Shown here in pieces: positions 1,981 to 23,600 of a DNA stretch of 23,600 bases; position 1 is the stretch's first letter, and each line of letters starts with the position of its first letter. Both the position numbers and the translations under genes were made by a program. The notes below the pieces were generated by a model, which was not told the origin of the DNA, did not search any database, and was given only the letters and a program-made list of their open reading frames with translations. Origin of the DNA: a virus (taxonomy: Duplodnaviria > Heunggongvirae > Uroviricota > Caudoviricetes). The stretch is taken from the IMG/VR virus record IMGVR_UViG_2548876944_000013, positions 1 to 23,600 of that record; one strand, written 5' to 3'.

Positions 1981-1991
1981 AAATTACCCCT

Positions 1992-2671: not shown

Positions 2672-2720
2672 TATTGTTTCCTCTTAAGTTAATTAGATAT
2701 GTTTATTTAGAATTGGAAAC

Positions 2721-2745: not shown

Positions 2746-2753
2746 AGAGAATA

Positions 2754-3224: not shown

Positions 3225-3278
3225 TATTCTTTTCCTTCTATTTTAAACAATAGGGCACATACCCGTAATTCTATTTAT

Positions 3279-3886: not shown

Positions 3887-3888
3887 AA

Positions 3889-4185: not shown

Positions 4186-4223
4186 ATAAGAATCCTTAGC
4201 GGAGATTTCTCCCCGCTTTCCAA

Positions 4224-7754: not shown

Positions 7755-7780
7755 CTAATCACCTCACATAAAACAGGAAT

Positions 7781-7798
7781 AAGGGAGGCGTTAACCTC
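7781..7798 (-). terminator. stem-loop (possible attenuator) between the 277-aa gene and the fibre gene
   Basis: Perfect palindrome gggagg-cgttaa-cctccc. On the minus strand it is followed by a U-rich stretch, uuauuccuguuuua. Confidence 0.35.
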
Positions 7799-7825
7799 CC
7801 CGTCATGTTTTATTTAGAGAAGCAA

Positions 7826-8659
7826 TCAGTATTTCCCGAAATCGATCCGGTCATGGATAGAAACGGCTTCAATCTCGGCTGGTGTCGGTTTTTCTTCTGT
7901 GGAATACAATTTCACCCATCCAGAATTACCGTCTTTCTGGACTGTGCGAACTCGTAAACGTGGTGCACCAGAAGCGGTGCAAGTTAATTGCCATCCACCA
8001 TCTTCATTAGGTTGAACGTGAATTAGTGAAGTATCAGCACTAAATGGGTTAGATGCGCTCGATCCCTGATAGGTTACGAAACGGTTTCCGGCTAATGCTT
8101 CGCTATCAATCGGACCCGTGAATGGATTTACACCAGCACCCAAACCAAAATCACCCTGACGTAAGATCCGGCCTTCGGTAGCAATACCGCGATCTAGAAT
8201 CCCGCCATCAGGTTCTAATTTAAACTCGATTGTAGTAACTTTGTTATCACCGGATTTTGTTTTATGTGACGAGACATAAGCGTCAAAAATGACGTAGTAA
8301 CCTGTGTTAGCAGCACTGTAACCAGAGTTCACAACATAGAACATACGAAAGCGTAAAGGAGTTTTATCATTCACCGCTTTCATCAACATGTCTTGATGTT
8401 CGTCATCCAGAACACGGTTTACTACTAACGTAGTTGATTCAAGTTTACGATAGCCAGCAAGTTTACCCGTAGCGTCCTGATCATACTCTTCTAACGTCTG
8501 GATCTCTGTGGATTCGGTTATCGTCGGGAATGCTGCGATGTTCTCGATAGGACTAAATGCAGGATCGAAAAAGTCCGGCTGGTTATCCACCATAGTAGAC
8601 ACGGAGACTTCAACATGCGACCCCGTGAAAATGTCTAAGTTATCTTGTGTAATATTCAT
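7826..8659 (-). CDS. virion structural protein (277 aa), neck/collar or tail-associated; carries KPTPAEI motif shared with the fibre
   Basis: Beta-rich composition and position between neck-protein genes and the fibre gene. C-terminus EEKPTPAEIEAVS mirrors GDKPTPAEIGAYS inside the fibre. SD aagggg. Confidence 0.4.
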   Translation of the reverse strand: MNITQDNLDIFTGSHVEVSVSTMVDNQPDFFDPAFSPIENIAAFPTITESTEIQTLEEYDQDATGKLAGYRKLESTTLVVNRVLDDEHQDMLMKAVNDKTPLRFRMFYVVNSGYSAANTGYYVIFDAYVSSHKTKSGDNKVTTIEFKLEPDGGILDRGIATEGRILRQGDFGLGAGVNPFTGPIDSEALAGNRFVTYQGSSASNPFSADTSLIHVQPNEDGGWQLTCTASGAPRLRVRTVQKDGNSGWVKLYSTEEKPTPAEIEAVSIHDRIDFGKY

Positions 8660-8668
8660 TATTACCCC

Positions 8669-9070
8669 TTAAAAACGCGCTAGATAAGAAAATTTAAGGC
8701 TAAGTGTCCCAACGATACCCCCATCACTAGAATCATCGTCATAATCGGTATTAGAAGCTACTGGAGTGATATCTGAAATAGAGAAGCCCAAATCTTTAAA
8801 TCGTGGGTTATCTGGCTGAATCTGGATTATCTGGCAAATACCCTCATGAATTTTCGTTTCATGAATCTGAGAATATAACTGCATTTCGATAACGCATTCA
8901 GCTTGCATTGCATTACCACCACGGCCCCTAGTGTAAGTCTCATTCATTCCGGTGATCCAACAAACCACGTCATCACTAAAGCCTTGCTGAGTTTGTTCTA
9001 CGTTTAAAGCCAGACCTAAATCTTGTTCGATAATATCTTGCAAGGCGCGTTTGATTTTCAGTCTAGGCAT
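8669..9070 (-). CDS. putative head-tail joining / tail completion protein (134 aa from the ATG at 9070; ORF track extends to 9139)
   Basis: The ATG at 9070-9068 lies 4 nt after the stop of the upstream gene (coupling). The longer upstream extension overlaps the preceding gene by 65 nt. Assignment is by position after the capsid gene only. Confidence 0.4.
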   Translation of the reverse strand: MPRLKIKRALQDIIEQDLGLALNVEQTQQGFSDDVVCWITGMNETYTRGRGGNAMQAECVIEMQLYSQIHETKIHEGICQIIQIQPDNPRFKDLGFSISDITPVASNTDYDDDSSDGGIVGTLSLKFSYLARF

Positions 9071-9074
9071 GTTA

Positions 9075-9365
9075 TTAACGGTAGCGAGCATGTGTACCCC
9101 CTGCCAGAGTAATAAAGCAATCAGTGGTATTATCACCATTGCGCTTAACGTATTGAACTTTGAAACGCTGGTTTTCTACAATGACAATATCACCCTGCTT
9201 TAAGTCTCCCTCACGACAAAATAGAAATTCTGTCTCTGTCATTACCCCTTGTTCGTCGGTAGTAGTAATTTCATGATAAGCACGAATTGATTTACCACCT
9301 TCCACCGAAAATACAGGAGCACTTCGGAACATTCTTGATAATTGTGATTCTGATAATTTGAACAT
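9075..9365 (-). CDS. putative head completion / head-tail adaptor protein (96 aa)
   Basis: Small ORF directly after the capsid gene and its terminator. SD aggggg. Size and predicted beta-rich sequence fit adaptor proteins, but there is no specific motif. Confidence 0.4.
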   Translation of the reverse strand: MFKLSESQLSRMFRSAPVFSVEGGKSIRAYHEITTTDEQGVMTETEFLFCREGDLKQGDIVIVENQRFKVQYVKRNGDNTTDCFITLAGGTHARYR

Positions 9366-9391
9366 AGTTACCCCCTTTATGGAGTATTTAC

Positions 9392-9422
9392 ATACAAAAA
9401 AGCCCCACCATAAGGCAGGGCT
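9392..9422 (-). terminator. intrinsic terminator downstream of the capsid gene (minus strand)
   Basis: Hairpin agccc...gggct with an internal loop, followed on the minus strand by uuuuu (9400-9396). Confidence 0.5.
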
Positions 9423-9556
9423 AATTATTATTCTTTAGTTTTACGTTGTTTTTTAACTGTGGCTTTCGCCGTAACCGTCTGGGAATCTTCTTCCGGTTTA
9501 GGAATCAGATTTTCTTCCCCCAAATCGGGGGAAGGTTCAGAAGGTTCTACGCTAGT

Positions 9557-11563
9557 TCAGTCAGCGGAGATGTGAAGAACTTTCAGCGCTTCCGGCTGGG
9601 TTACAACGTAATCCAGATCTACCCAGATACGCGGAACGATAGCAGACTGTGCGCGGTAGGTAGTGTCATCAATGTCAAGTTCCAGACCCCCCCATTCACC
9701 GATGGTAATAGCGTCGAACGATCCCAGAACGATGTGGTCTACCGGAATAACACCAGAAGTAACTACGTCGTAACCAGCCAGTTTACCGTTTTCGATGATA
9801 TAACCGGAAACACCGTTATCTTTCAGGGTAGATTCCAGTTCAGCAGCAGTTGCACCGCTCATTGCAAACTTGATCGCCTGAGCAGGAACGCCAGCGTCGG
9901 TCAGTTTAGCAATTTCTTTCAGGAAGTCTTTATAAGAGAAAGCAGCTTTCTTCTCTACGCGACCAGCATCTACCAGTTGTTTAATCACACCAGCCGGACC
10001 ACGAGCATTTTCTTTGTCGGACAGAATCAGTTGTTCCAGTTTGATGCGAACAGCCTGGTTAATGTGATCAGTGATCAGGGTAGCGATCCCAGGAACGGTC
10101 TTGAGGCTAGCCCTAGAAATTGGGTTGCCACCAGCAAAAGTTTTCGGAGCCATTTTCACGTTCGCAAATTCGGCTTTACCTTCCGGTGCAGCACCGTTTT
10201 CATCAACGAAGCCGAAAGATTCAACGCTAGAAGCGGTCATTTTCGGAATAGCGGTCGGCGAAGTCAGACCAGACAGGACTTTCACACCCAGACGACCCAG
10301 AACGGATTCCGGCATCAGCATCGCTACATAGGAATCATTCAGCAGTTTTTCGTCAGTTACAGCGGTCAGAGTAGCTTTGGTGTTACCATCAGCAGCAGCA
10401 CGCATAGCAGCAGTAGGAACGAATACGGAGCCACCGCGAGCAGCACGACCACGCTGCATAGTTGCAGTAGCAGCCATTGCAGAAAACTCGGCTTCGTTAG
10501 CACCCAGAGCTTCACCATCTACCAGAGAGCGAATTACGTTGTTCAGGTCAAAAGTTTTTTCCATTTTAGAGTCCTTAATTTGTTGTTCGTTATTACGTTG
10601 AGCATTGGTAATGTTATTTAGTGCCTTAGTGCGGAATGCTTCCGGCGTCATGTCTTTAATTGCCAATGCGCGTTCTAATTCTTCGTCGTTAATATTTAGT
10701 TCGCGTGCAATTTCGCGAATTTCTAATTCGTCTTCTTCGGAACGTTCAGCCACTTCCTCGGTTTTTTCTTCTTCAACCGGAGCGGCTTCACGTTCTTCTT
10801 TTACTTCTTCTGTTTCCCGAACAGTTGAACTATCATCATCAACACTTTCAGGATGTTCAGCGTCTTTTCCGTCTTCGAGATTTTCATCTTCTTTATTCTC
10901 TTCAACTTGGCGCTCTTGAGTTTCTTCAACTTCCGATTCTTTATTTTCTTCTACCGGAGTTTCTTCAACCTGAGCGGATTCTTGTTCTTCTTTGATTTCT
11001 TCAATTTGTTCTTTAGTCATATCGCGTTTAGCCTCCAAATTAACTGTGATAGTATTTAGAGAGCGATTTAAACCGACCGAATCGTCCGCCGGGACCGTAA
11101 CAAAACTTAATTCGAACGGAACAAACTTAGTAACAATCAATTGCCCTTTGGTGTAGTCGATGTGATATTCTTTAATGTCATAGCCGACAGAAATTTTTTC
11201 CATCGTACCTTCAATGACTTTATTACGAATATCATTAGCCAAAGTGCCATGCTTAGAGAATCTAACGGTCGCACGGCCTACTTTATCCGCATCGATTCGA
11301 GCGTTACAAACGACACCTAAATGATTATCGAAATTATGATTAAACAGCAACGGAGCGTTATTATTCAGACGAGACAGATCAACCGCTTCCGGTGTATGTA
11401 CCAGAATTTCATCTAATACCACCATTTCTTGATTTTGCTCATCCCAGAATTGGCGCTGATACGGCTGTTCACTGGAGAAAGCAATTTCAAATTCGTATTG
11501 ATCATTATGCCCTTCGTTAATAACTCCACCGTAACCGTTAAGTTCGCGGCGAAATTTAAGCAT
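9557..11563 (-). CDS. prohead protease - scaffold(delta)-like acidic linker - HK97-fold major capsid protein, fused in one ORF (668 aa)
   Basis: N-terminal ~170 aa resemble the HK97-type prohead protease (LLFNHNFDNHLGVV, ISVGY). Residues ~180-330 are Glu-rich and coiled-coil, like a scaffold/delta domain. The C-terminal ~330 aa are capsid-like with strong 'high-expression' codon bias. SD aaggtga. Confidence 0.75.
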   Translation of the reverse strand: MLKFRRELNGYGGVINEGHNDQYEFEIAFSSEQPYQRQFWDEQNQEMVVLDEILVHTPEAVDLSRLNNNAPLLFNHNFDNHLGVVCNARIDADKVGRATVRFSKHGTLANDIRNKVIEGTMEKISVGYDIKEYHIDYTKGQLIVTKFVPFELSFVTVPADDSVGLNRSLNTITVNLEAKRDMTKEQIEEIKEEQESAQVEETPVEENKESEVEETQERQVEENKEDENLEDGKDAEHPESVDDDSSTVRETEEVKEEREAAPVEEEKTEEVAERSEEDELEIREIARELNINDEELERALAIKDMTPEAFRTKALNNITNAQRNNEQQIKDSKMEKTFDLNNVIRSLVDGEALGANEAEFSAMAATATMQRGRAARGGSVFVPTAAMRAAADGNTKATLTAVTDEKLLNDSYVAMLMPESVLGRLGVKVLSGLTSPTAIPKMTASSVESFGFVDENGAAPEGKAEFANVKMAPKTFAGGNPISRASLKTVPGIATLITDHINQAVRIKLEQLILSDKENARGPAGVIKQLVDAGRVEKKAAFSYKDFLKEIAKLTDAGVPAQAIKFAMSGATAAELESTLKDNGVSGYIIENGKLAGYDVVTSGVIPVDHIVLGSFDAITIGEWGGLELDIDDTTYRAQSAIVPRIWVDLDYVVTQPEALKVLHISAD

Positions 11564-11583
11564 TTAATCACCTTTAATTAATT

Positions 11584-11600
11584 GGGGGCATTGCGCCCCC
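11584..11600 (-). other. GC-rich stem-loop between portal and capsid genes
   Basis: gggggc-attgc-gccccc, a 6-bp all-GC stem, with no U-run. Possible RNA processing or stability element. Confidence 0.4.
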
Positions 11601-11608
11601 GTTGGTTA

Positions 11609-12073
11609 TTAGGGATCGGTTGGGGAATTTTTTTCTTCACCCTCACCATCAACGATAATATTTAGTGCGCTCTTTTCGGCTTGAATCTCTGAGAATACTT
11701 TTTCAGGATCATCACCACGTTCTAATATAACGGCAGTACGTGATTTAAGTCCTTTATCAATTAAAGCAATCTCGGCGTTTACGTCTTTAATTGGATCGAC
11801 GGATTCAAAACGCGGACGAATAATAGTAGTGTTGTCGATAATATGCGGAATTGCAGTAATACGAATCGGAACAATACCACGCGCGGAATAATGGCGTAGA
11901 TATGCTTCAAAAATTGGCAATACCACTGTTTCAATTAATTTGTTTTGCAGTGCTTTAACTCGTGTGCGTTGAGTTAATTCACCAAAACGCGCGGCTGAGT
12001 AGTTGATCTGGGAAGTATCACCAGTCAAGCCCTGTTTAAACACGCCTAAGCCCATTGATACGCTAGTAAACAT
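11609..12073 (-). CDS. portal protein, C-terminal portion (out of frame with the upstream portal ORF)
   Basis: Overlaps the 357-aa ORF by 28 nt in a different frame, and this frame is open far upstream of its ATG. No SD before the ATG at 12073. The two ORFs together span ~1.5 kb, the size of a lambda-gpB-type portal gene. Confidence 0.5.
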   Translation of the reverse strand: MFTSVSMGLGVFKQGLTGDTSQINYSAARFGELTQRTRVKALQNKLIETVVLPIFEAYLRHYSARGIVPIRITAIPHIIDNTTIIRPRFESVDPIKDVNAEIALIDKGLKSRTAVILERGDDPEKVFSEIQAEKSALNIIVDGEGEEKNSPTDP

Positions 12074-13119
12074 CGCATCATTGAAGCTGTTAAAGTCATC
12101 ACCGCTTTGGCGCTCTGAATTGCCTTGATCGTTGCCCCTTCCGGCAATTCCTGAATAGTACCCGGTGCAAAATCCTGTACTACTTCCGGCGCTTGATATT
12201 GGTCTTCATCTTCGCCAGTATCAAAATCGTCACCAGAATCTTTCGGACGTTCGATAAAGCCCATAGAGCTAGCTGCAATACGTTTCTGGATGATCGCAGT
12301 TTCGCGGAATGCGTCTTGATGTGCGATATCCTTGATCACTGGTAGGAAGTCAGTCACACCACGCAGAGATTCAGCCGTAAGTGGTTGATAATAATGGCAT
12401 ACTTGCGAAGCCTCGACACGATAGTTATCACCTGTGTAGGTCTGAGTCAGTAGATTGACTTTACGAAACCAGTATGCAACAGGGCGCATTGTGTTCACGT
12501 CATACTCCACACCTTGATATATCGCACGTTCTTTGCTTACTTCACGATTGAGCGACCAGTCGCACTTATCAGCAGACAGGATAGAAACATTTAACTCATT
12601 GTTTTCTTTGGTTAAAACGATGAAGCACTCACCACCCATAACGCGCTCACGTTCAGCCATTACCAGCAGTTCACGGAAGTTAAAGCGACCATTGCGGGAG
12701 AAGCGTTTAGCATTCTGCGCCCACTTCCAGAAAGCATTCTCAATCTGCTTATTCAGTGCGCTATCAAGTTTGCCATTTGATTTAACAACTGACGGCTTCG
12801 GATCTAGGCCAGTACCGACCACCATATCGGTGATGTATTGCGTGTAGCGACTGCCTACGGAAGTGTTTAAGGCCAGAGTACGACCCTGATCATAAAGGCG
12901 CTTACCGTTCGATTTGAGAGCCTTATTGAAGGTTCCGGTAATGGTGTCTTGTTGAAGCTGTCCATCAATGCGATCACCGACCAAGCCCAAAGAACGCTTA
13001 GACAAATCTTTCTGGAATTTTTCTACTTGTTTGTCGATAAAGATTTTTTGTTGTTGCTGGCGGTGATTAGTTTTAACTGGAGTTTCTACCGCCTTTTTGC
13101 GTCGAAAAAGATTAAACAT
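12046..13119 (-). CDS. portal protein, N-terminal portion (357 aa ORF)
   Basis: Position directly after the large terminase gene and an intervening small gene. SD aagggg. Called as portal mainly from position and the combined ~500-aa size of the two ORFs; no specific portal motif was identified. Confidence 0.55.
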   Translation of the reverse strand: MFNLFRRKKAVETPVKTNHRQQQQKIFIDKQVEKFQKDLSKRSLGLVGDRIDGQLQQDTITGTFNKALKSNGKRLYDQGRTLALNTSVGSRYTQYITDMVVGTGLDPKPSVVKSNGKLDSALNKQIENAFWKWAQNAKRFSRNGRFNFRELLVMAERERVMGGECFIVLTKENNELNVSILSADKCDWSLNREVSKERAIYQGVEYDVNTMRPVAYWFRKVNLLTQTYTGDNYRVEASQVCHYYQPLTAESLRGVTDFLPVIKDIAHQDAFRETAIIQKRIAASSMGFIERPKDSGDDFDTGEDEDQYQAPEVVQDFAPGTIQELPEGATIKAIQSAKAVMTLTASMMRCLLAYQWA

Positions 13120-13129
13120 GATTTACCCC

Positions 13130-13624
13130 TTATCGCGTAAGACGTAATTTGATATTTTTAATCGGGCTAATTCCCTGTTTACGTCGTTCGGCTTGAATTA
13201 GTTTAGATAACTGACGTTCATAATCAGTCTTTAATTGATTGAGAACAGCCACTGACTCGTAAGCAAATTGATTGCCCTTTACGGTCATTTGAGATAATGC
13301 GGCTTCGTCCCCAGATAAACGGGCGAAAATAACTTGCTCGATTAAGGCGATAGTTTCCCGCAGATATTCTTTTTTGGATTGTTTGGCGAATACTGGCAAA
13401 ACAGTTAATTCCTGCATTGATACCAGTTCATCTTCCAAAGTGGTTACGATGGTATATTTACCCTCGGCAAAATCTAAGGTTTTAATCTCATGATTAGCCG
13501 GAGTATCATCAACCTGATAAATGATACCTTTACTATTTCCTACCTGAATTGTTACACCCTCTTCATTCGCCAGCGTGATTTTTTCGCCTTTACGAATTAC
13601 TAAGGGAATTAGTTCTAAACTCAT
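13130..13624 (-). CDS. hypothetical protein (164 aa) between terminase and portal, possibly head-associated
   Basis: Good SD aagggg and tight packing in the operon. No recognisable motif. Confidence 0.4.
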   Translation of the reverse strand: MSLELIPLVIRKGEKITLANEEGVTIQVGNSKGIIYQVDDTPANHEIKTLDFAEGKYTIVTTLEDELVSMQELTVLPVFAKQSKKEYLRETIALIEQVIFARLSGDEAALSQMTVKGNQFAYESVAVLNQLKTDYERQLSKLIQAERRKQGISPIKNIKLRLTR

Positions 13625-13672
13625 AATTACCCCTTATTTAATTGTTATTGGATTAACAATATTTAGGAGTAA

Positions 13673-13690
13673 GCCGCCCCGAAGGACGGC
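13673..13690 (-). other. UUCG-loop hairpin immediately after the large terminase stop codon
   Basis: gccg-u-cc-(UUCG)-gg-g-cggc on the minus strand, with no clear U-run. Confidence 0.35.
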
Positions 13691-13696
13691 GAGTTA

Positions 13697-15604
13697 TTAG
13701 AACGATGTTACCCAGCTACGGCCTCTATTTGGGCGTCTGGCGATGTTTTGACGTTGTGGTCGTGTGATTGGCTTAGTTTCTTCTATTTGCTCGTCAGATT
13801 GCGATTTAGGAGCTTCTACGGATTCTTCGACAACACGGTTTAAGCTGTCTTTCATTGCAATGAGTTTATCCCATGACATTTTTGAAAGAACGTAGCGAGA
13901 AGCAGCATAGCTATAAACCAGACAGTCGAGAGCCTCGTTTCGGGTACTACCTGGATTTTTCACCCAACGCACGCCAGTAGTAGTACGCTTGATGGATTCA
14001 CTCAAAAGCTGATCGAGATAATCATCAGGAACGGTTTCTGATATTTCTAAGCCAATATGAGGATTATCTTTCAGGTTTCTAACCAGCATTTCACGAACAG
14101 CGGATTTACCAACGTTAACACCCAGCATAAGCAATTCATGACCACCTGTGCGGGTAGGTTTAACCGGAATCACTGGAGCATTACCAGATGAACTACCTTT
14201 GATAGCGTGTAGGTTCTTCCACTTGCCGCAAATACGGTATCCGGCTTGAGTGAATCGACCGTTCGATGTATCAAGGAAGCTGGCGAGCATTGGTACACGT
14301 TCACCATTAACGTTATAGAATTTGGTTTTCTTGAAGTTAACCAGGCGATCCCAAACAGGTGATTCATATCGTTCACAGTTATGATCGTAAAAGCTGCGGT
14401 GATCCAGAATGTAAACCTTATCTTTCGCTACACCTAAGATGGTAGATTCTGCGCGGTCCAATTGCTGGTCAATTCCTGAACACAAGAAAATCACGTCATC
14501 AGGGATATTCTCGATAGAAACATCTGTTTTGAGTTGTTCCAGTTCATTTGCTTCTACTGCCGTGTCCTGATCGTCGTATACCTTGCCTAACACGGTGTTA
14601 AAAAAGGATTGTAAATCAAAGGATTGCCACGCATGACTAAAATCAACCACACAAGCGCGGATACTACTGAAAGGTGAATACAGACGGCTGATCCAGAATC
14701 CTGCTACTTCACTTTCACGGGTTGCTCTCCACTCGCCTTGCGCTACTGCCCTAATTCGTTCCCCTTCTGTCCATGCGTTCTTACAGTGGGGGCAAATATA
14801 ACGAGCGGTATCAGGATCGGGTAAGTTCTTACCATCGATGTTACGCCATTCAAATTGAACGTTTTCCCACTCGATCACCTGGTGTTCCCCGCAATGAGGA
14901 CACGGAACAAAAAACATACGCATATCGCTTGATAACCATTGCTGGTTAATGCTTCCGAGCTTACTGGTCGGGGTACTGGATACGACTAATCGGCCTTCAT
15001 CGCCAAAGGTAGTTAAACGGTTAGCAGCCAGTGCCACCGGATCACCTTCTTCTGAGGCTGTAGCAGCATCGATTTCGTCAAGCAATCCAACCTTTGCGGT
15101 CTTACCACGTAGGGTCGATGGACTGGTTAGCGATACCATGTAAAGGAAGTGATTCGTTTTTAGCTGTAGCTGGTTATTGTTGTTAACCGCATTGCGATCA
15201 TTCTTGTCTGTAACCACGTCTTTTAATGCATCACATGCTTCGATAGACGGTCGGATCTTACCAGCGAGATATTGAGACATTTCTTTAGCGGTTGATTGTC
15301 CGATAATCATATTGCATGGATCGTTAGCCATCTGGTTAAACAGGATACCGTTCAGGATGGTAGTCTTTCCGATCTGCGCACTGGTCATCAGAACATACTT
15401 TTTCTTGTTCTCAAGGAAAGGAGCATCAATCATGCCTTTCTGGAATGACAGCAATTTAACTTTATCCCCAGCTTGAGGACCATCTACCAGCACCATATTA
15501 GCTTCGCACCATTCAGAAGGAAGGAGCTTAGGCGGTGGCGTAATATATTTGGCTGCATTTTTGAGAATCTTTTTTAATTTGGCCTTATTAGAAATTAGTT
15601 TCAT
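13697..15604 (-). CDS. terminase large subunit (GpA family, 635 aa)
   Basis: Walker A-like [11 protein letters not shown] near the N-terminus. CPHCGE...CPHCKN double-cysteine motif mid-protein. Length and domain order match lambda-gpA-type terminases. SD gaggg. Confidence 0.8.
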
Positions 15605-15691
15605 GTAATTACCCTCATTACGAAATATGAAGGTATTTATTAAGTTGTTGATTTTTTGATAAATACGGGTATTAAGATTTAAGGAGGGTGT

Positions 15692-16294
15692 ATGCTAATT
15701 AATCAGCAAGAAAGAGATGAATTAGAATTAGCCTTGTCTTGTACCGATCATGAATATCGTTTGCCAGTTAAGCACCATCACAAGAAGACTGATTACACAA
15801 CATCCGGCTTTAGTCGCGAGGAAGCGAAACAGATTTTAATCGAGTTGTATCGCGATCATGGGTATACCGATATTCATAACTTCTTTAAGAAGCATCGCAC
15901 ATCACAGACAGAGTTTCAGCGAGTCCGTGAATGGTTTGATTTTGATATCAAGCGTTATTATCGAGTGGATGACGGTCCAATCTATCGGTTGCAGTGGAAG
16001 CCGATCAGGGAAGTGCTTAAACAGAAGAGATTGAATCATGCCATTACACGCTATCGTAACGTGGCTTTCAAGAAAGGCTATGGTGATTCAAGGGAATTGT
16101 TTGTAGAACTCGCTAACGTGCGATATAGCCACTATTACAGGAATCCTAAAGAGTTCTTCGAAGTGCTGCGCAAGGTTGATATTAGTCGGGGTACATATTA
16201 TTCACGGTTGAAGAAGTACGGGATTAAGGCAGAGTTCTTTATGTCGGTTGACGATGGAGAACTTTTTCCGATAAAATGTAAGTCCTCTAAATAA
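15692..16294 (+). CDS. hypothetical basic protein (200 aa) with C-terminal helix-turn-helix-like segment; member of a 3-protein paralog family
   Basis: Strong SD aaggaggg. C-terminus [20 protein letters not shown] resembles the C-termini of the 85-aa and 64-aa proteins. Transcribed divergently from the terminase gene. Confidence 0.45.
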
Positions 16295-16323
16295 AGGTGA
16301 ACATTCACTTTAATTTGGAGAAA

Positions 16324-16554
16324 ATGACTATGACTACTAAAGCTACTCGCGGTCGCCCTGCCCGTTTTAATCGTGAACAACTGGCAGCGATTGTAAAAGC
16401 ATACTATCAAGCACCGAAAGGTAAAGAGAACAAAGAACGGGTATTAAATGAGCATGGCTTATCTATAGCCCAGCTATACAAATCCCTACATAAAGTTGAT
16501 TTGAAATTCTTTGTTCAGGTTGACGGTGAAATGGTAGAAGCAACAGGAATTTGA
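16324..16554 (+). CDS. small DNA-binding protein (about 76 aa from the ATG at 16324; ORF track begins at GTG 16297)
   Basis: N-terminus TRGRPARFNREQLAAIVKAYY is a GRP-x-KF/HTH-type motif common in small phage DNA-binding and terminase-small-subunit N-domains. Followed by a strong terminator. Confidence 0.5.
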   Translation: MTMTTKATRGRPARFNREQLAAIVKAYYQAPKGKENKERVLNEHGLSIAQLYKSLHKVDLKFFVQVDGEMVEATGI

Positions 16555-16562
16555 TTCTCTAG

Positions 16563-16589
16563 GCCAATCCTTCGGGGTTGGCTTTTTTT
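16563..16589 (+). terminator. intrinsic terminator (plus strand)
   Basis: 8-bp stem with UUCG loop (gccaaucc-uucg-ggguuggc) followed by seven U. Confidence 0.8.
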
Positions 16590-16602
16590 ATACCTACAGA
16601 TA

Positions 16603-16628
16603 CAAAAAAGCCCCTGAAATTCAGGGGC
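16603..16628 (-). terminator. intrinsic terminator (minus strand) after the Rha-family gene
   Basis: 8-bp stem gcccctga/tcaggggc, followed on the minus strand by uuuuuug. Convergent with the plus-strand terminator. Confidence 0.7.
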
Positions 16629-16636
16629 AAAAATTA

Positions 16637-17452
16637 TTACAGTCCGAAGTGTTCTAGCGATCCAACATTCTGACGAATCATGATAGTCGCTTTATTCTGA
16701 ATCATGATCGTGTTATTCGGTTTAGGCAGTGTCAAAGCTGCTTTTTGTTCTTCTTCAAGAACACCCAATTCAACCAGCACCGGAAGCACATCAACAGTGA
16801 AAGAAAGTTGATAGTGAGCGTTCATGCTGCAAAACGGTATCGCGGAATCATTAGCAACATACCCACACGGCTTGTTATTTTCATCATAGACGCGCTCAAT
16901 GTATCCGGCAGTACGTAAGGCCGTCAGTGCTTCTTTAACCTTCGTAGCGCCCTTTTTAGCACCTAACAAACGCGTCATTGAATGGCTATCTACGGATTTG
17001 CGATGATGTAGAGTAATCAGTTGCTTGTTCTCGCGAGTTTTCTTTAACGCCAGTTCGATCCAGTCGGTTTCTTCAAAGTCTGCATACGGGTTAACGGCTA
17101 ACCGTTCCTGACGCAGTTTTTCATTTTCTTCTTTCAGTCGTTTCCATTCCTGAATAACAATCATTCGACGTTTAACATCGTAACCAGTAACAAGAGTCAG
17201 CGTCATTTCTTCGTCAAGGTGATATTCGGTTTGTTCGCGTCCATATTGGTCAAAATAGATACGCTGAGATTTCAGCGCATCTAATTCAAGTGCTTTAAAC
17301 ATCTTAACAATATCAGCTTTAACGTTTTTGTGTTCTTTTCCGGTAAATTCAGCGATCTGACGAGAAGACATGGTCAGTGGTTTGGTGTTATCAACAACCA
17401 GAGACACGGAAGCAGTTTTAACAGCAGTATTCATAGTAGTAACAGTATTCAT
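16637..17452 (-). CDS. Rha-family phage regulatory protein / putative antirepressor (271 aa)
   Basis: N-terminal region LTMSSRQIAEFTGKEHKNVKADIVKMF is typical of Rha-domain proteins. SD aagggga. Confidence 0.6.
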   Translation of the reverse strand: MNTVTTMNTAVKTASVSLVVDNTKPLTMSSRQIAEFTGKEHKNVKADIVKMFKALELDALKSQRIYFDQYGREQTEYHLDEEMTLTLVTGYDVKRRMIVIQEWKRLKEENEKLRQERLAVNPYADFEETDWIELALKKTRENKQLITLHHRKSVDSHSMTRLLGAKKGATKVKEALTALRTAGYIERVYDENNKPCGYVANDSAIPFCSMNAHYQLSFTVDVLPVLVELGVLEEEQKAALTLPKPNNTIMIQNKATIMIRQNVGSLEHFGL

Positions 17453-17543
17453 AGTAAAATTCCCCTTAATTAACGGTTTTGCGATTTAATCCTCCCTGTT
17501 CCGGCATCACCACCGGAACAATTTTATTTATAAGAGCTATTTC

Positions 17544-17798
17544 TTATTTGTTGTTAGCACACAATCCGCGTAAAGCCATTTGCAAAGGTGATGGTTTCGG
17601 TGCTTTGGATTCGTCTTTATATTCCACATCCACGGTTTCGGTAGCCCAACCAAAGCCCTTAACATAACGACGACGGCGGGTTTCGATCACCCCTGGTTCA
17701 CGTTCACGGAACATCTTCATTAACTTGTCATTGTGGAAGCTATCAGCATCAAAACCTAACAGGATGAAAGGAGTAGTGGTAGTCATTTTATGGTTCAT
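17544..17798 (-). CDS. hypothetical protein (84 aa)
   Basis: SD gagga 9 nt upstream of the ATG. Lies upstream of the Rha-family gene on the same strand. No motif recognised. Confidence 0.4.
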   Translation of the reverse strand: MNHKMTTTTPFILLGFDADSFHNDKLMKMFREREPGVIETRRRRYVKGFGWATETVDVEYKDESKAPKPSPLQMALRGLCANNK

Positions 17799-17997
17799 AG
17801 TGGAAATCCTCTAAAAGAAAGTGAATCAATCTAATATTATTTATAAAGAGAAAATTCTTGTTATTATGAAAGGTGATTGTATTCAGTCGGGCATAGCCCT
17901 CCTTCATAGTTTTGATTAAATCATCATCAAAACGAAGAAGTATCTTTAGAATATAAGAATCTTTCTTTTGGAGAAATAATAATCAGGAAGCAATTTA

Positions 17998-18026
17998 GCA
18001 ACCGAAGGTTGCAATCCCGAAGGGAT
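17998..18026. other. two adjacent short hairpins with GAA/UUC loops
   Basis: gcaacc-gaa-ggttgc followed directly by atccc-gaa-gggat. Confidence 0.4.
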
Positions 18027-18123
18027 ACCAATACCTTTCTAGAAAGTGATTGTTACTCACTTCGTTCGTTTACTAGAATCAGTTAGTAACTAGTATTAAA
18101 TCCCTTTCTAAGAAAATCCTTTC

Positions 18124-18258
18124 AAAAGCGAGTGAACGCCGTAGGCGTGAACGTGAGCGAAGCGAACTATCCAATCCCTTTCGAATCCTGCTTGCAGGTC
18201 TTAGAAGGTGTTGATGGGCGCTTCGCGCACGGCTACGCCGTATTCTTTTTGCGAGATC
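18124..18258. repeat. large imperfect inverted repeat with internal 5-bp-stem mini-palindromes
   Basis: Left arm carries acgcc-gta-ggcgt and gtgagcgaagcg. Right arm carries cgcttcgcgcac and acggc-tac-gccgt. The centre holds cctgcttgcagg. Region is GC-richer than its surroundings. Confidence 0.45.
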
Positions 18259-18372
18259 TTTCTTGAACGTAGTGAGAGAAAACGAGCAAAAAGGAGAACG
18301 TTAGTTCGAATTTTATATTCTATGGTCTGTGGGGCTAAATATCCTTCAAGATCATACACTTATGAGATTGAA

Positions 18373-18491
18373 GTGTAGGGTTAGTGTAGGTGTGTAGGTT
18401 TCATAGTGTAGGTTTGAGGGTGTTATAGTGTAGGTTTACTGGCTAGTGTAGTGTAGGCCAATCCCTTTAAAGTGTAGGTTTGTAGTGTAGG
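18373..18491 (+). repeat. iteron-like array: eight direct copies of GTGTAGG (extended (T/A)AGTGTAGG(T/G)TT)
   Basis: Copies start at 18373, 18384, 18392, 18406, 18428, 18451, 18472 and 18485, all in the same orientation, in a non-coding region. Confidence 0.7.
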
Positions 18492-18599
18492 GTTTTCATC
18501 AAAAATTTTGATAGAAAATTCTTGTATATTATTTAATCATAAAATCACCAAAAATCTCGGTAACCGCATGATTTAAAAGGAATGATCAAAAGGTCGCCG

Positions 18600-18608
18600 T
18601 GCTATAAT
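18600..18608 (+). promoter_or_regulatory. candidate extended -10 promoter (TGcTATAAT)
   Basis: Perfect TATAAT at 18603-18608 preceded by TG at 18600-18601. No good -35. Confidence 0.35.
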
Positions 18609-18688
18609 AGGTTATAAAGGTTGATAATCGTTATCCGCCATTTTCACACAAAAATTTTGATAGTCATTTCTCGCTTAGATCAAGTGTA

Positions 18689-18717
18689 TTGACAACTGTC
18701 AAGGATTATTTTATACT
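18689..18717 (+). promoter_or_regulatory. sigma70-type promoter with operator-like palindrome over the -35
   Basis: TTGACA (18689-18694), 17-bp spacer, TATACT (18712-18717). The -35 sits inside the palindrome ttgacaactgtcaa. Confidence 0.55.
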
Positions 18718-19059
18718 TTTTCTCGTTGGTAGGGGTTGAAATTTTCGAAACAATCCCCATATTGATGATAAGCAAGATTTTTTCGTGTATAAATACATGC
18801 ATGAAATGATTGTTCACTTCTGAAAATCCCCTGATTCACTGTTAACACATACAGCACTGGTTAAACATACAGTACTTTTTCGATTGAATAATGTACGAAT
18901 TGATTAATTATTAATCTTATCTTTAGCAATTCGTGCTCCCACTGATCGGATATACAGTGGTTTTACAGGGTTTTCTGAAAATCATTTTATAAATAGAAGT
19001 ATCGAGGGCGAAAAGCTCTTTTTATTGTCCTTATTAATCCACATTTGAGGAATCTACTT

Positions 19060-19239
19060 ATGGCTAGACCTGTTAAGTTTACTCGTGAAATGATTGTTGA
19101 TATTGCTAAACGCTTTTATGGCGATACTGAACGAGGCGGCGAGAATTTCTTTAAGAAGGAAGGAATTGATAGAAGCGGATTCTATAAGCTAATGAAGAAA
19201 TACGAAATTCAGATAAAGATTAACGTTCAAGTTTGTTAA
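19060..19239 (+). CDS. small HTH DNA-binding protein (59 aa from the ATG at 19060), paralog of the 85-aa protein
   Basis: MARPVKFTREMIVDIAKRFY...GIDRSGFYKLMKKYEI. SD gagg 9 nt upstream. The ORF track starts at an upstream TTG. Confidence 0.5.
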   Translation: MARPVKFTREMIVDIAKRFYGDTERGGENFFKKEGIDRSGFYKLMKKYEIQIKINVQVC

Positions 19240-19282
19240 TCCACTTTCACTGAGAATTATATGATGGCTTTAAAAATAAAAA

Positions 19283-19313
19283 AGCCTCCCTGTTGGCGCA
19301 AGGAGGCTTTTAG
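19283..19313 (+). terminator. hairpin terminator/attenuator between the HTH gene and the acidic-protein gene
   Basis: agcctcc...ggaggct, a 7-bp stem with a 12-nt loop, then uuuu. Confidence 0.4.
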
Positions 19314-19358
19314 CATGAAACATTAAAACTAACACAGAGCATTCAGGAGTATTTATAA

Positions 19359-20354
19359 ATGAAAAATTCTAAGCGCATCACCTTCAACCTGTTTATTAAA
19401 TCCAACGGCAAACTGAACATTACCGTCATGGAAGGTAAAGCAAGCAAACAAGACAAATCCTTTGAAGTAGTATCCGGTAAGACTCTGACCGAAATGCGTC
19501 AGAATGCTGGCATCAAAGACGGTGCTGAATGGCAGATCACTAACCGTTTCGACAAACGTCACGTTAAACCTACACTGGTAGAAGGTGAATCCGTTTATTG
19601 CTTCGCTCGTGCTGTTAAAGCTGATGAAACTTACTATCTGGCTGTTGTTAAAACTGCTTCCGGCTTCCGTGCTGTAATGCATCACAAGAGCAAACGTAAC
19701 GAATACGGCGTAGAGACCCAGGAAGTCGCAAAACGCTTCCGTACTGTTGCTACCGAATCCACTGTAAAGGATGTTTCTGGTACTGTTAACACCGCTAAAG
19801 GCGGTTCCTTCTACAACCACGCATTACAGGTTACTTCCTCCTTCTTCTGCAAAAAAGAAGCACAGAAAGAAGTTTCTCCGGTAGTAGTTGAAGAAGTTAA
19901 AGAAGAAGTTGCAGTGGTTGAATCTTCCGAAGTTGAAGCACTGAAAGCACGCATTGCTGAACTGGAAGCTGAAAACGCATCTCTGAAAGCTGAACTGGCA
20001 GCACAGGAAACCACTTTCGAAGTAGCAGCGGTTGAAGTTGAAGCAGTTGAAGAAAAATCCATTGATGAAGAACTGGAAGAACTCCTTAACTATCGCTGGG
20101 GTGTTGTTGCAGAAGTAGAACAAGAAGTTGCTCCGGTAGTTGTTCCGGTTGAAGTTGAAAAAGAATCCGCACCTGTTACTAACTTTGAATCCCTGCGCAA
20201 TAACTTTATGGCTAAATTCAAAACCACTTGGGAAGATACCGAAGAAGAACAAGAAGAGATTGAAGTAAACGAAGACGAGATCCGCGAAGCACAGATGGCA
20301 CTGCATGACGCTATCTACGACACCAACTACAGCGCCTACGCATACGCAGCTTAA
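19359..20354 (+). CDS. highly acidic protein (331 aa) with strongly optimised codon usage; function unknown
   Basis: SD caggag 9 nt upstream. Codon choice (CGT, CTG, GGT, GCT, TCC, ACC, GAA, AAA) matches that of the capsid and tail tube genes. The C-terminal half is Glu/Val/Ala-rich with a coiled-coil segment EVEALKARIAELEAENASLKAELAAQE. Confidence 0.6.
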   Translation: MKNSKRITFNLFIKSNGKLNITVMEGKASKQDKSFEVVSGKTLTEMRQNAGIKDGAEWQITNRFDKRHVKPTLVEGESVYCFARAVKADETYYLAVVKTASGFRAVMHHKSKRNEYGVETQEVAKRFRTVATESTVKDVSGTVNTAKGGSFYNHALQVTSSFFCKKEAQKEVSPVVVEEVKEEVAVVESSEVEALKARIAELEAENASLKAELAAQETTFEVAAVEVEAVEEKSIDEELEELLNYRWGVVAEVEQEVAPVVVPVEVEKESAPVTNFESLRNNFMAKFKTTWEDTEEEQEEIEVNEDEIREAQMALHDAIYDTNYSAYAYAA

Positions 20355-20369
20355 TAGAGGGGTGAATCT

Positions 20370-20612
20370 ATGATGAATCAAAACAAAGAATTTCTGGGTA
20401 ATCTGATGTTAGAAATTACCAAAATGAAAGAAAGAATGGTAGCGATGGAATCAGAGATTAAAACACTTAAAGCTGATAATAAGGCGTTGAGAAAGTCCTT
20501 AAAGCTGATTGATGAGACTAATGCGGTTATGATGGATCATGTATTCCCTGAGTGGCGAAATGAAACTAAACCTACACAACATAAGAAACTTACACTTCGA
20601 ATTGTTGCATAA
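20370..20612 (+). CDS. small coiled-coil protein (80 aa), likely co-transcribed with the 331-aa gene
   Basis: Start 15 nt after the upstream stop with SD agagggg. Heptad-like MKERMVAMESEIKTLKADNKALRKSLKLI. Confidence 0.5.
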   Translation: MMNQNKEFLGNLMLEITKMKERMVAMESEIKTLKADNKALRKSLKLIDETNAVMMDHVFPEWRNETKPTQHKKLTLRIVA

Positions 20613-20617
20613 AAAAA

Positions 20618-20635
20618 GGGACTCCGAAGAGTCCC
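20618..20635 (-). terminator. hairpin terminator (7-bp stem; A7 on plus side, T7 on minus side)
   Basis: gggactc-cgaa-gagtccc. U7 follows on the minus strand. Lies directly after the 80-aa gene stop on the plus strand. Confidence 0.55.
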
Positions 20636-20720
20636 TAGTAAGTTTAGGTTAGGTTTGCACAACAAAGATGAGGTTATAATGAACATAATGCTACATTATT
20701 CTTTAAAGCCAGAAAAATAA

Positions 20721-20736
20721 CCGCCCCGAAGGGCGG
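20721..20736 (-). terminator. intrinsic terminator (minus strand)
   Basis: ccgccc-cgaa-gggcgg. The minus-strand reading has a UUCG loop followed by uuauuuuucu. Confidence 0.5.
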
Positions 20737-20892
20737 GAGGATTAATACTCAATCTATACTTGTTATGTTTTTATGTTGTATAGATCCTGACTATGAAAAC
20801 ACTGTACTGGAAGTGTGTTTTTATGGCTTTTAATCGGGAATCCTCAAAGAAGATCCCCTGTTAATAACCATAAGGAGAAAAGGCAGATTACA

Positions 20893-21069
20893 CTATTATT
20901 TAGTATCCTTTTTACAGCAACTAAAAAGAATAAACAAAAAGAAGCATACCCAGCCGTAAGGCGTACCGATTAGAAATTTGAAAAACACCACCAGCGATAT
21001 AAAAATCAATTTAATGCCAGCGACGATAGTCAAAAACAGCAGAGTAGCAAAGTAGACAAAAAGATCCAT
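20893..21069 (-). CDS. small membrane protein (58 aa, two predicted TM helices); not in ORF track
   Basis: Translated by hand: MDLFVYFATLLFLTIVAGIKLIFISLVVFFKFLIGTPYGWVCFFLFILFSCCKKDTK. SD agagga 7 nt upstream. Confidence 0.5.
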
Positions 21070-21122
21070 AGATAATCCTCTTTGAAAACGACCATCATCT
21101 ATAGTTCAATTCATCGATTTAA

Positions 21123-21225
21123 TTAATGATACTTGAAAGCGTTACACAAAGTAGAAATGCCAATATGTGCCAGTGAATATACGATAGTTAATCCTACAGC
21201 CAGATAAATCAAAAATTCAACCATA
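21123..21225 (-). CDS. small hydrophobic peptide (33 aa, one TM helix) from the internal ATG with good SD
   Basis: MVEFLIYLAVGLTIVYSLAHIGISTLCNAFKYH. SD gagga 7 nt upstream. The longer 83-aa ORF in the track overlaps the upstream gene and has no SD. Confidence 0.45.
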
Positions 21226-21254
21226 GGTAAATCCTCAAATAAGAAAAAGGTTAG

Positions 21255-21273
21255 CGGGGGATGTTCTCCCCCG
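21255..21273 (-). terminator. hairpin after the Nu1-like gene (minus strand)
   Basis: cggggga-tgttc-tcccccg, a 7-bp stem. A U-rich run begins 5 nt downstream on the minus strand. Confidence 0.45.
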
Positions 21274-21324
21274 TAGACGTTGACCAGCTCAACATCCTTC
21301 ACGTATATATTTAGTATAGAAATT

Positions 21325-21879
21325 TTAAGACACATCAAATTCATCGTCTTCTTCTGGTTCTTGTTCCGGTTCATCGATTAATGCTAATTCTTCTTCCTCG
21401 TCTTCTCCCAAATCCGCATTTTCGAACAAGTCCCCTACTTCATTTAAACGACGCTCGATGATCTCCCTTAGCTTATTCTTCAATGTTTTCTGATCAGTGG
21501 CAGATTCGAGAATTTCTAAAGCGTCGATTGTGGCGATCTGCAAAATAGTCTGTTTCACCTTTCCGCAATATTCCGCTAGTTCCTGTTCTACATACCCGAC
21601 AGGAATCAGGAGATTCATTTTTTCCTGGTTCTCTCGTTCGGCTGCATCTGCCAAAGCACGCTCACGGCGTAATTTCTCTACATCGATTTGTTCTTTGATA
21701 GAAGTTTGTTTAAGCGGGTTGATAATATTTTTCAAGACCCATTCTGTTCCTTCTTTGGCTGGCACGCGGCGGGTATTGGTGTTAAATGGCAATCCCCTTT
21801 CTAACCATCGCTTACCGCCACCATTCAATGTATAACCATATAAACGGGAAATTTCTGTAAGGGTTAATTCTTCTTTCAT
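21325..21879 (-). CDS. Nu1-like DNA-binding protein, candidate terminase small subunit (184 aa)
   Basis: N-terminal winged-HTH-like LTLTEISRLYGYTLNGGGKRWLERGLPF and EKLRRERALADAAERENQEK resemble lambda Nu1 as I recall it. Acidic C-terminal tail. It is 5.7 kb away from the large terminase gene. Confidence 0.45.
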   Translation of the reverse strand: MKEELTLTEISRLYGYTLNGGGKRWLERGLPFNTNTRRVPAKEGTEWVLKNIINPLKQTSIKEQIDVEKLRRERALADAAERENQEKMNLLIPVGYVEQELAEYCGKVKQTILQIATIDALEILESATDQKTLKNKLREIIERRLNEVGDLFENADLGEDEEEELALIDEPEQEPEEDDEFDVS

Positions 21880-22003
21880 TGGTTATCCTCCATTAAATTT
21901 GCGTAATTTTATTTATTGGTTTTACGCACAATCTAAGCGCCTAAATCGCATTCTAACGAAGGGAAAGATCCAGTAATGGTAAGGGCTAGGAAGTGGGTTA
22001 ATA

Positions 22004-22039
22004 GTCGCGTAGCGACCGCGCCATAAGTGAAGTGATCAC
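22004..22039. other. candidate cos/packaging-site palindromes upstream of the Nu1-like gene
   Basis: gtcgc-gta-gcgac (22004-22016) followed by cgcgcc and gtgatcac. Inverted ttgcgtaa/ttacgcac elements lie between it and the gene start. Confidence 0.25.
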
Positions 22040-22237
22040 GTTTTAGAATCCCGCCCGCGTATCAAATACCGGGGTGCCGAAAACTCCCTTTATTTCATCC
22101 GTGGAACAGTACCTTTTTAATTTGTCAAGCATTAATTTCTTAATTTAATTACTAAATCTCATCCCAATAATTGAAAAAATATCAAAAATCAATAAAGTAA
22201 GCATCTAAAAGTCAGTCCATACCAAAAGAGGTATAAA

Positions 22238-23017
22238 ATGAAAAACATTATCGCTGCTATCGTGCTTTCTGCTACTGCTTTCGGTGCTGATGCTGCGTCC
22301 TTTGATTGCACTAAGGCTACTACCAAAGCAGAGAAGTTTATTTGTGCTAATGAGTCAATCTCCGCACTGGATTCTAAACTTCATGAAGTATATGTTAAGG
22401 CTGTTAAGATTGATCCGTCTCTTAAACAAGAGCAACGCAACTGGAATAAAACTGTTCGTGATACAATGATCAATATCGGGCAGATTCAGCCACTGGAGGC
22501 TGTATACAACGCTCAAATCCAAAACTTGATGAATGTATTATCTAAAGAAGAAACCGCGTCAGAGAGCGATTCAGAGACTTCTGCGAAGATTGAAGAAGAA
22601 CAACCGAAACAGGAAGAAGTAAAGAAACTGAATGTTACCGCGATTTACGCATGTACTACAAAATTTACATGGAAAGTTATCGATGGTGAGGAAACAGAAG
22701 CTGTAAAAGATAAACTCTACGGAAACAAAACTTTTGATAATAACGGCGGTAAACTTAAGATCAAAATGGTAGACGATGTTCCTGTATCTTTTGTGTATTC
22801 CGACAAGTATGATGTTTATAAATCAAGTCTCAAGCCATCTAAAGAGAATCCAAACGCAATGGAAGGTAAATCCAAACAGGATGCTATTGGACGTGTTAAC
22901 ACTTATAACATCTGGGTAAGCAAAAAAGGTGACATGCGTCTTGAAGTAATTGAACCAAAATTTGATTCTGAATATAAACACACTCAATTTGCATGTGACA
23001 TGGTAGACGCAGAGTAA
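22238..23017 (+). CDS. secreted protein with N-terminal DUF1311 (LprI-type lysozyme-inhibitor-like) domain and uncharacterised C-terminal domain (259 aa)
   Basis: Signal peptide MKNIIAAIVLSATAFGADA. SFDCTKATTKAEKFICANESISALDSKLHEVY...QRNW matches the DUF1311 cysteine pattern. SD agagg. Codon usage is the 'high-expression' type. Confidence 0.55.
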   Translation: MKNIIAAIVLSATAFGADAASFDCTKATTKAEKFICANESISALDSKLHEVYVKAVKIDPSLKQEQRNWNKTVRDTMINIGQIQPLEAVYNAQIQNLMNVLSKEETASESDSETSAKIEEEQPKQEEVKKLNVTAIYACTTKFTWKVIDGEETEAVKDKLYGNKTFDNNGGKLKIKMVDDVPVSFVYSDKYDVYKSSLKPSKENPNAMEGKSKQDAIGRVNTYNIWVSKKGDMRLEVIEPKFDSEYKHTQFACDMVDAE

Positions 23018-23249
23018 GAGGTGAAATGATGCAATTCAATAGCATGAAGATTACTCAAAAATGGTGGGATGCGATGAAAGCTAACCACCAGAACGATATT
23101 AATTAAGTAACATTTTAGATATACAGCACCCAGCTAACAGATCACCTTTTATGGATTTCATTATAACCCCTTTGATCTGGAAACTATGTTAATTAGTTGA
23201 TTTCTAAGCCTTGTCCTTGAGATGGGGCTTTTTATTGCAAAATTTTTAG

Positions 23250-23579
23250 TTATTTTGGGTTGACTACATTCGGGTTGCCAATTCGCCTGGCTAACTCTTG
23301 CTGAGTGATTTCTGACTGTAAAAAAGCATTTAACAGCAATACTTTAGAGGCGACGCTCAAAGGTACTTCAATAAAGTGATCATGACTATTTAATGGCGAA
23401 GGTAACGGGATAAGCTCGTTATCTTCAAAATAAAAATCAAATGCGGTCAGTAAAGCATCTTTTGCCGCTTCCATCGCTTCAGCGACAGTTTCGCCCTGCG
23501 TCAACGCTTCAGGGATATCCACAAAAGAAACCATATAACCGCCTTCCGGCGCGGGTGTAAGAGTGACGGGATAACGCAT
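23250..23579 (-). pseudogene. hicB: hicB (HicB antitoxin) 5' portion, 3'-truncated; novel C-terminus NPNVVNPK then stop
   Basis: MRYPVTLTPAPEGGYMVSFVDIPEALTQGETVAEAMEAAKDALLTAFDFYFEDNELIPLPSPLNSHDHFIEVPLSVASKVLLLNAFLQSEITQQELARRIG matches E. coli HicB as I recall it. The expected continuation through the DNA-binding helices is replaced by 8 unrelated codons. Confidence 0.6.
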
Positions 23580-23600
23580 AATTTCGACTGTCTCTCGCAT

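Follow-up and report, generated by a model that had tools for sequence, protein, structure and literature searches.

A tailed-phage prophage probably integrated by a large serine recombinase inside the hicB antitoxin gene of Escherichia coli

How does an E. coli HicB antitoxin come to end in eight foreign codons, and what becomes of the hicAB toxin-antitoxin locus when it does? The question is raised by the right-hand end of the 23,600-nucleotide stretch of viral DNA analyzed here (the window), which carries an ORF of 116 aa on the minus strand (23250..23600) that had already been described in the initial annotation of the sequence. Residues 1-108 of this ORF were 100% identical to crystallized E. 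coli HicB (PDB 6U0I, E=5.6e-68), and PDB 6HPB matched it over residues 1-101. In a DNA alignment with K-12 hicB, the two sequences were collinear through ...CGA ATT GGC AA and diverged inside codon 102 (K-12 numbering), where AAA (Lys) gives way to AAC (Asn) followed by PNVVNPK and a stop codon. The eight foreign codons of NPNVVNPK-stop replace the last 37 residues of K-12 HicB. The initial annotation had reported a HicB match that diverges at ...ARRIG into NPNVVNPK-stop, and the 100% identity up to the junction, together with a breakpoint now located inside codon 102, bears this out. Its figure of about 104 matching residues was correct as to the N-terminal match but not as to the number, since the retained portion comprises 101 residues in the 138-aa numbering of K-12, or 108 residues when counted from the upstream ATG.

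Closer examination of the domain content revealed that Pfam PF15919 (HicB_lk_antitox) is kept in the ORF (33.4 bits against a cutoff of 27, residues 10-74), while HTH_3 (PF01381), which is present in K-12 HicB at residues 88-134, is lost. The window ORF is a truncated HicB derivative and not an intact member of the HTH class, and the PGAP annotation of the same sequence in complete genomes labels it a hicB pseudogene ('incomplete; missing C-terminus'). Following the canonical HTH_3 pattern, helix 2 and the turn would correspond to ITQQELARRIG and the recognition helix to KPKQEITRLFN, which would put the cut within the DNA-binding domain, in the turn that follows helix 2 and precedes the recognition helix. 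The earlier view that the gene is cut where the DNA-binding region begins thus holds for the loss of the domain, while the position has to be moved to a point inside it. The host-derived 5' part of hicB (23277..23600, minus strand) corresponds to ORF codons 1-108, i.e. K-12 residues 1-101 plus a 7-codon upstream extension, and encodes the complete HicA-binding N-terminal domain as well as HTH helices 1-2. The phage-derived ORF end (23250..23274, minus strand) supplies the last base of the Asn codon as well as PNVVNPK and the stop, and was identical in a sibling prophage that sits in ycdX. Two versions of this phage arm were found among the lysogens, one giving the NPNVVNPK tail as in the window, the other copying nine more host bases, keeping Lys-Pro-Lys and terminating in CCKPQ.

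The origin of the foreign codons became apparent from the genome of PK8568, which contains a prophage collinear with the window and 99.9% identical to it over 23.6 kb, and in which both prophage ends are visible. The right end adjoins hicB(5')-hicA-yncJ-rlhA and the left end adjoins hicB(3')-ydcR, so that the flanks reproduce the K-12 gene order with the prophage placed in hicB. This arrangement supports the proposal of the initial annotation that phage-like DNA was inserted in a chromosomal toxin-antitoxin locus, as do the population data: of 5,426 complete E. coli genomes, 5,323 have hicB at the chromosomal locus and only 37 show the phage-hicB junction (sources included pigs, humans, cattle, poultry, goose and water). 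The other junction, which the initial annotation had placed beyond the window, was found in near-identical complete genomes as an exact hicB 3' fragment that lies beside ydcR at a distance of 36 kb. The window itself contains no integrase, as had been noted, and in the near-identical genomes a large serine recombinase is encoded near the far end. Both the integrase and the left junction lie beyond window position 1 and were read from genomes 99-100% identical to the window.

For the hicAB locus the consequences depend on what the shortened antitoxin can still do. In E. coli HicB the HTH binds the operator and the following beta-strand dimerizes the protein; HicB represses promoter P2, from whose transcript only HicB is made (PMC10865869, PMC11594946). 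Judging from the residues retained, the truncated HicB keeps the full HicA-binding partial RNase H domain and is left without the HTH recognition helix and the dimerizing beta-strand that follows it. With both of these elements lost, it should no longer dimerize, bind hicO or repress P2, and P2 should be derepressed. Deregulation of hicAB by the insertion, as suggested in the initial annotation, is therefore a plausible outcome in terms of the regulatory circuit, and the truncated protein plausibly still binds HicA. We lean slightly towards the reading that it also still neutralizes HicA, in which case the locus would become an unregulated but harmless toxin-antitoxin pair.

The main competitor to this reading, to which we assign a substantial probability somewhat short of even, holds that the truncated HicB is dead, being either unstable or non-neutralizing, and that lysogens survive since the chromosomal HicA is weak; the insertion would then simply knock out hicB and mildly activate HicA in strains whose hicA is intact. 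A half-HTH stump could indeed make the protein unstable, and HicB is among the substrates of Lon (PMC5408214). Against this, the complete HicA-binding domain is kept, and the N-terminal domain of HicB neutralizes HicA independently of the DNA-binding domain (PMC10865869, PMC11594946). A Yersinia HicB without its C-terminal domain still complexes the toxin (PDB 4P78, cited in PMC11594946), and HicBs that naturally do without a DNA-binding domain are common (PMC10865869, PMC11594946).

The state of hicA, which lies beyond window position 23600, bears on both readings. The toxin gene was intact in 27 of the 37 lysogens, while eight carried a 22-bp frameshifting deletion in hicA and two had lost hicA together with the start of hicB (one case verified, the other inferred). 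Loss of hicA function in these ten lysogens favors a dead HicB, whereas the retention of hicA by 27 lysogens of varied lineages speaks against it. In the six diverse lysogens that were checked, hicA was full length and 97-100% identical to K-12, and the retained hicB portion (~125 nt aligned next to the junction) was free of indels. Lysogens with an intact hicA do not prove that the truncated HicB is active, because an E. coli hicB deletion mutant has been reported viable (PMC5408214). The 22-bp deletion, located between TGCG repeats (L003 47555..47845, just past the window end), likewise weighs against the dead-antitoxin explanation as it is a common allele that occurs independently of the phage in 606 of the 5,426 complete genomes, which implies that a dead HicA beside an intact HicB is common in E. 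coli. The three genomes closest to the window all carry this deletion, so that little may remain to be deregulated in the window strain.

Loss of hicA was nevertheless somewhat more frequent among lysogens (10 of 37) than the ~11% observed elsewhere for the 22-bp deletion (Fisher p=0.007, uncorrected for shared ancestry and setting any hicA loss against one allele). This excess may reflect a weak enrichment and could hint at a cost, but we give it little weight. A strict need of the phage for a dead toxin was considered and rejected, the 22-bp deletion being a common allele that is absent from most lysogens. The insertion might also be read as a reversible switch on a defense or stress module instead of a neutral landing site, which we regard as unlikely. 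If it were true, monomeric, non-repressing HicB would be overproduced from the derepressed P2 and would silence HicA permanently, a toxin proposed to act in anti-phage defense would be disarmed while the prophage is resident, and integrase-mediated excision would restore a regulated hicAB. Returning to neutralization by the truncated HicB, the reading we prefer, the 27 lysogens with intact hicA represent natural strains that bear on the sufficiency of a HicB without DNA-binding domain.

Turning to the mechanism of insertion, window positions 23275-23276 very probably mark attR, the right-hand junction of a temperate tailed phage that a phage-encoded large serine recombinase integrated in hicB. 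The crossover dinucleotide at 23275..23276 reads TT on the plus strand and AA in hicB sense, where it forms the first two bases of the Lys102 codon, and it is the sole stretch that can be assigned to neither host nor phage. Junction alignments place the hybrid attR site at 23253..23298, about 22 bp to each side of the TT, with the phage P arm at 23253-23274 and the host B' arm at 23277-23298; this extent is an estimate based on typical serine-integrase site sizes and on analogy with A118 (PMC3556126). Both junctions and the empty K-12 site have only TTGGCAA (hicB sense) in common, and comparison of the K-12 site with both junctions revealed no target duplication. At the left end of the PK8568 prophage, every base of the hicB 3' fragment agrees with K-12, from the junction through the stop codon. 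Given this identity and the short common sequence, precise excision would be expected to restore hicB.

The sibling prophages in ycdX allowed the exchange to be delimited further. In window orientation, the sequences around the crossover are CGGG-TT-GCC in attP, GGGA-TT-TCC in the empty ycdX attB, GGGA-TT-GCC in the ycdX attL and CGGG-TT-TCC in the ycdX attR; this quartet confines the exchange to the TT from either side, and the sites contain neither extra nor missing bases. In the attLs of ETEC1717 and of seven environmental contigs, the host sequence was invariant through the TT and variation set in from the next base on. The attP reconstructed from the junction sequences would read ...GGGTTGACTACATTCGGG-TT-GCCAAATATTATGTACCCAC..., and its dyad symmetry was highest at the TT, with 14 of 22 positions matching as the best of 114 centres (5.6 +/- 2.2 at the other 113), while the attB sites in hicB and ycdX exhibited weak symmetry (7/20). 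An exact 20-mer across the predicted attP junction had no matches in viral and metagenome contigs. A search of the contigs with a conserved 30-mer from inside the left phage end retrieved seven contigs, all of them integrated in hicB; a phage in free or circular form, with attP intact, was not found.

According to the mechanism we propose, the integrase would pair an imperfectly palindromic attP of ~50 bp with an attB of ~40 bp inside hicB, and both sites would be cut at the central TT with a 2-bp stagger before the half-sites are rotated and religated. No host base would be duplicated or lost on integration. hicB would thereby be split inside codon 102, its 5' part gaining eight phage codons and a stop, while the 3' part would be moved, unchanged, 36 kb away to a position beside ydcR.

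The candidate enzyme is a 559-aa protein (WP_089540841.1) encoded ~1.5 kb from the left junction in PK8568, with Resolvase (PF00239), Recombinase (PF07508) and Zn_ribbon_recom (PF13408) domains that all scored above the Pfam gathering scores. By this architecture it would be a large serine recombinase, with its activity predicted. Its N-terminal YIRFSS motif aligned with the region around the active site in a resolvase-family protein of known structure, and the integrase was too diverged from any solved serine integrase for a sequence match. No recombination directionality factor was identified for it. Entry by a tyrosine integrase, by transposition or by homologous or illegitimate recombination, with the serine recombinase merely incidental, is in our view very improbable. 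The assignment of activity does rest on sequence, and IS elements are found in or near some copies; on the other hand, the exchange involved only 2 bp, without duplication of the target site or a long shared core, the PGAP annotation lists no other integrase in the 36 kb prophage, the junction is the same to the base in 37 genomes and seven environmental contigs, the symmetry of attP is centred on the crossover, and target choice covaries with the DNA-recognition domains of the recombinase.

This covariation emerged from comparison of integrase genes from three loci (L003 13005..14684, L006 2201..3880 and L004 6318..7997). The UTME-9 sibling prophage has the same backbone, near-identical phage arms and an integrase 92% identical to that of PK8568, but splits ycdX. 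The PK8568 (hicB) and UTME-9 (ycdX) integrases differed at 45 positions, 30 of which fell in the recombinase and Zn-ribbon domains and three in the catalytic domain. Between the two hicB-targeting integrases of PK8568 and ETEC1717 there were 38 differences, 32 of them in the catalytic domain. Target choice thus tracks the recombinase and zinc-ribbon domains and not the catalytic domain, which is what recognition of the att DNA by those domains would predict. In one hicB-type integrase the catalytic domain was 21% diverged from those of the other two enzymes, while the remaining 400 residues were near-identical to the other hicB-type enzyme, a pattern that makes the integrase genes mosaics.

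The integrase family was present in 57 genomes, and the ycdX junction of the sibling prophages was detected in 16 of the 5,426 complete E. coli genomes. Integrases at least 99.6% identical to each other were found in hosts with different hicA alleles, which, together with the spread of the junction across sources, supports mobility of the element. The view that the ORF represents a naturally short HicB, a HicB variant or a homologue carried by a phage, to which HicBs without DNA-binding domain in other classes (PMC10865869) and prophages that carry hicAB, such as Cyrano in LF82 (PMC9928086), lend some general credit, is refuted by the 100% identity to chromosomal HicB up to the junction within a conserved hicA-hicB-ydcR locus, by the intact missing 3' end at the other prophage end, by the full-length form found at the locus in 99% of the E. 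coli genomes having hicB, and by the occurrence of the 8-codon tail at the sibling's ycdX junction, which identifies it as phage DNA. The two findings that the initial annotation had named as contradicting its view, a natural full-length variant or a phage-borne hicB, are both excluded in this way.

A scan of 185,579 species-representative genomes yielded no relatives of the integrase. Among sequenced phages there was no close relative, the best matches being ~30% aa identity for the integrase and 43% for TerL, and nucleotide matches were limited to T-even tail-fibre and cargo modules. The published literature, searched by gene names, att sequences and integrase accessions and with supplementary tables and subscription journals outside the search, contained no description of the integration site. 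Several other lysogens were decayed by IS insertions and deletions or reduced to a remnant (loci examined: L001 1690..2852 and L013 3272..3579): 14EC029 has an IS3 inside the prophage, EC42405 has lost hicA and the start of hicB, the integrase gene of HCP5S3_I4 is interrupted by IS1, and in EC7072022BGR the integrase of a prophage remnant lies only ~2 kb from attR.

The element itself is a siphovirus-type Caudoviricetes prophage with terminase, portal, capsid and tail module bounded by att sites. Based on PHROGs and Pfam matches and collinearity with PK8568, positions 1..23274 of the window constitute the right-hand ~23 kb of a ~36 kb prophage. Genes assigned by PHROGs/Pfam encode a tail tube (2754-3224), a tail fibre of 1,176 aa (4224-7754), a major capsid protein of 668 aa (9557-11563), a portal that is frameshifted in the window copy (11609-13119), the large terminase (13697-15604), a Rha-family regulator (16637-17452) and the small terminase (21325-21879). 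A G-run near 12109 is one base shorter in the window than in PK8568 and UTME-9, and this 1-bp deletion breaks the portal gene into two ORFs (11609..12073 and 12046..13119); the window prophage may be defective, or this may be a homopolymer sequencing error.

The last phage gene before the junction (22238..23017, plus strand) encodes an LprI-family secreted, lysozyme-inhibitor-like cargo protein, as judged by PF07007, phrog_14799 and the PGAP product name. It is followed by a phage-borne terminator-like hairpin with a T-tract (23206..23238, plus strand; 10-bp stem then TTTATTGC) that is located downstream of the LprI-like gene and 45 bp inside the phage end; the terminator scan returned two sites against 0.4 expected. 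In related prophages the last ~85 bp before the junction (23186..23274) are common and the genes just inside differ, with L3Cip3 carrying an unrelated hypothetical gene in the LprI-like position, a variable cargo slot next to attR.

Two parts of the window, 3279..7754 and 22238..23017, exhibited ~88% nucleotide identity to the virulent T4-like Krischvirus vB_EcoM_G37-3 in the same gene order. These parts encode the tail fibre, the products (~100 aa each) of the three genes that follow it and the LprI-like cargo protein, and the tail-fibre tip matched T4 gp37-type families. This similarity reflects an exchange of modules between Straboviridae and a temperate prophage of siphovirus type. A 91-nt tRNA-Glu call by ARAGORN (8814..8904, plus strand) lies inside and antisense to ORF 8669..9139 and is probably spurious; the Rfam scan of the window found nothing, including no support for this call. 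The region 17800..19350 (~1.5 kb) has no ORF of at least 80 aa and the lowest G+C of the window (0.34-0.40), its equivalent in PK8568 containing a single 59-aa gene in the PGAP annotation, and may be a regulatory or origin region.

The insertion is an event of an ordinary kind that would not surprise a specialist, and current understanding is not overturned by it; serine-recombinase elements inside genes are already known in kind, and the novelty appears limited to this particular lineage and its targets. Of modest interest are the hicB/ycdX integrase pair, which can serve as a model of specificity, and a natural HicB truncation beside an intact toxin gene. The recurrent hicB 'pseudogene' in ~0.7% of E. 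coli genomes can be recognized as the two halves of a prophage attachment site, and base-exact prophage boundaries were obtained for a lineage without a close isolated relative. The siblings form a natural pair with near-identical attP sites and catalytic domains and two different attB sites, and the ~30 substitutions in the recombinase and zinc-ribbon domains offer a compact lead for mapping target-recognition determinants, which for recombinase engineering concerns a serine integrase that would work natively in E. coli.

Host genes split by elements of this type are known from Bacillus subtilis, where SPbeta resides in spsM and skin in sigK, and serine-recombinase excision can reconstitute the gene; the life cycle of SPbeta is reviewed in PMC8270828. 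The prophage in hicB resembles these cases in that a prophage or prophage-derived element splits a host gene. The SPbeta and skin excisions are developmentally programmed and needed for function of the reconstituted gene, whereas the likeness of hicB concerns the gene splitting as read from sequence. A closer parallel is provided by A118/phi10403S in comK, where a large serine recombinase likewise puts a temperate siphovirus inside a host coding sequence. The A118 integrase exchanges strands at a 2-bp core in the centre of the sites, which has to be the same in attP and attB and which sets the orientation, attP being palindromic and attB almost without symmetry (PMC3556126). The hicB system likewise has an asymmetric 2-bp core at the centre, an imperfectly palindromic attP, an attB with little symmetry, poorly related attP and attB sequences and a host gene that precise excision would restore (PMC3556126). 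It differs in the core dinucleotide (TT here, GG in A118) and in its setting, a toxin-antitoxin gene of the Gram-negative host E. coli instead of the competence regulator comK of Listeria. In comparison with the active lysogeny of the comK type, only the sequence precondition is present here, namely hicB fragments that are intact and exactly rejoinable.

Compared with HicAB of K-12 (class 3, HTH-type; 6HPB, 6U0I), the window ORF is identical over residues 1-101 and occupies the same locus beside hicA, but has NPNVVNPK in place of the recognition helix and the dimerizing beta-strand. In architecture the truncated HicB resembles the HicBs without DNA-binding domain of Gerdes' classes 1 and 2 (PMC10865869), with the difference that it originated here by insertion. 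The nearest relatives remain the ycdX siblings such as UTME-9, which have in common with the hicB prophage the phage backbone, nearly the same attP arms, the TT crossover and a split host gene, and which differ in having their attB in the zinc phosphatase gene ycdX and an integrase that deviates mainly in the recombinase and Zn-ribbon domains.
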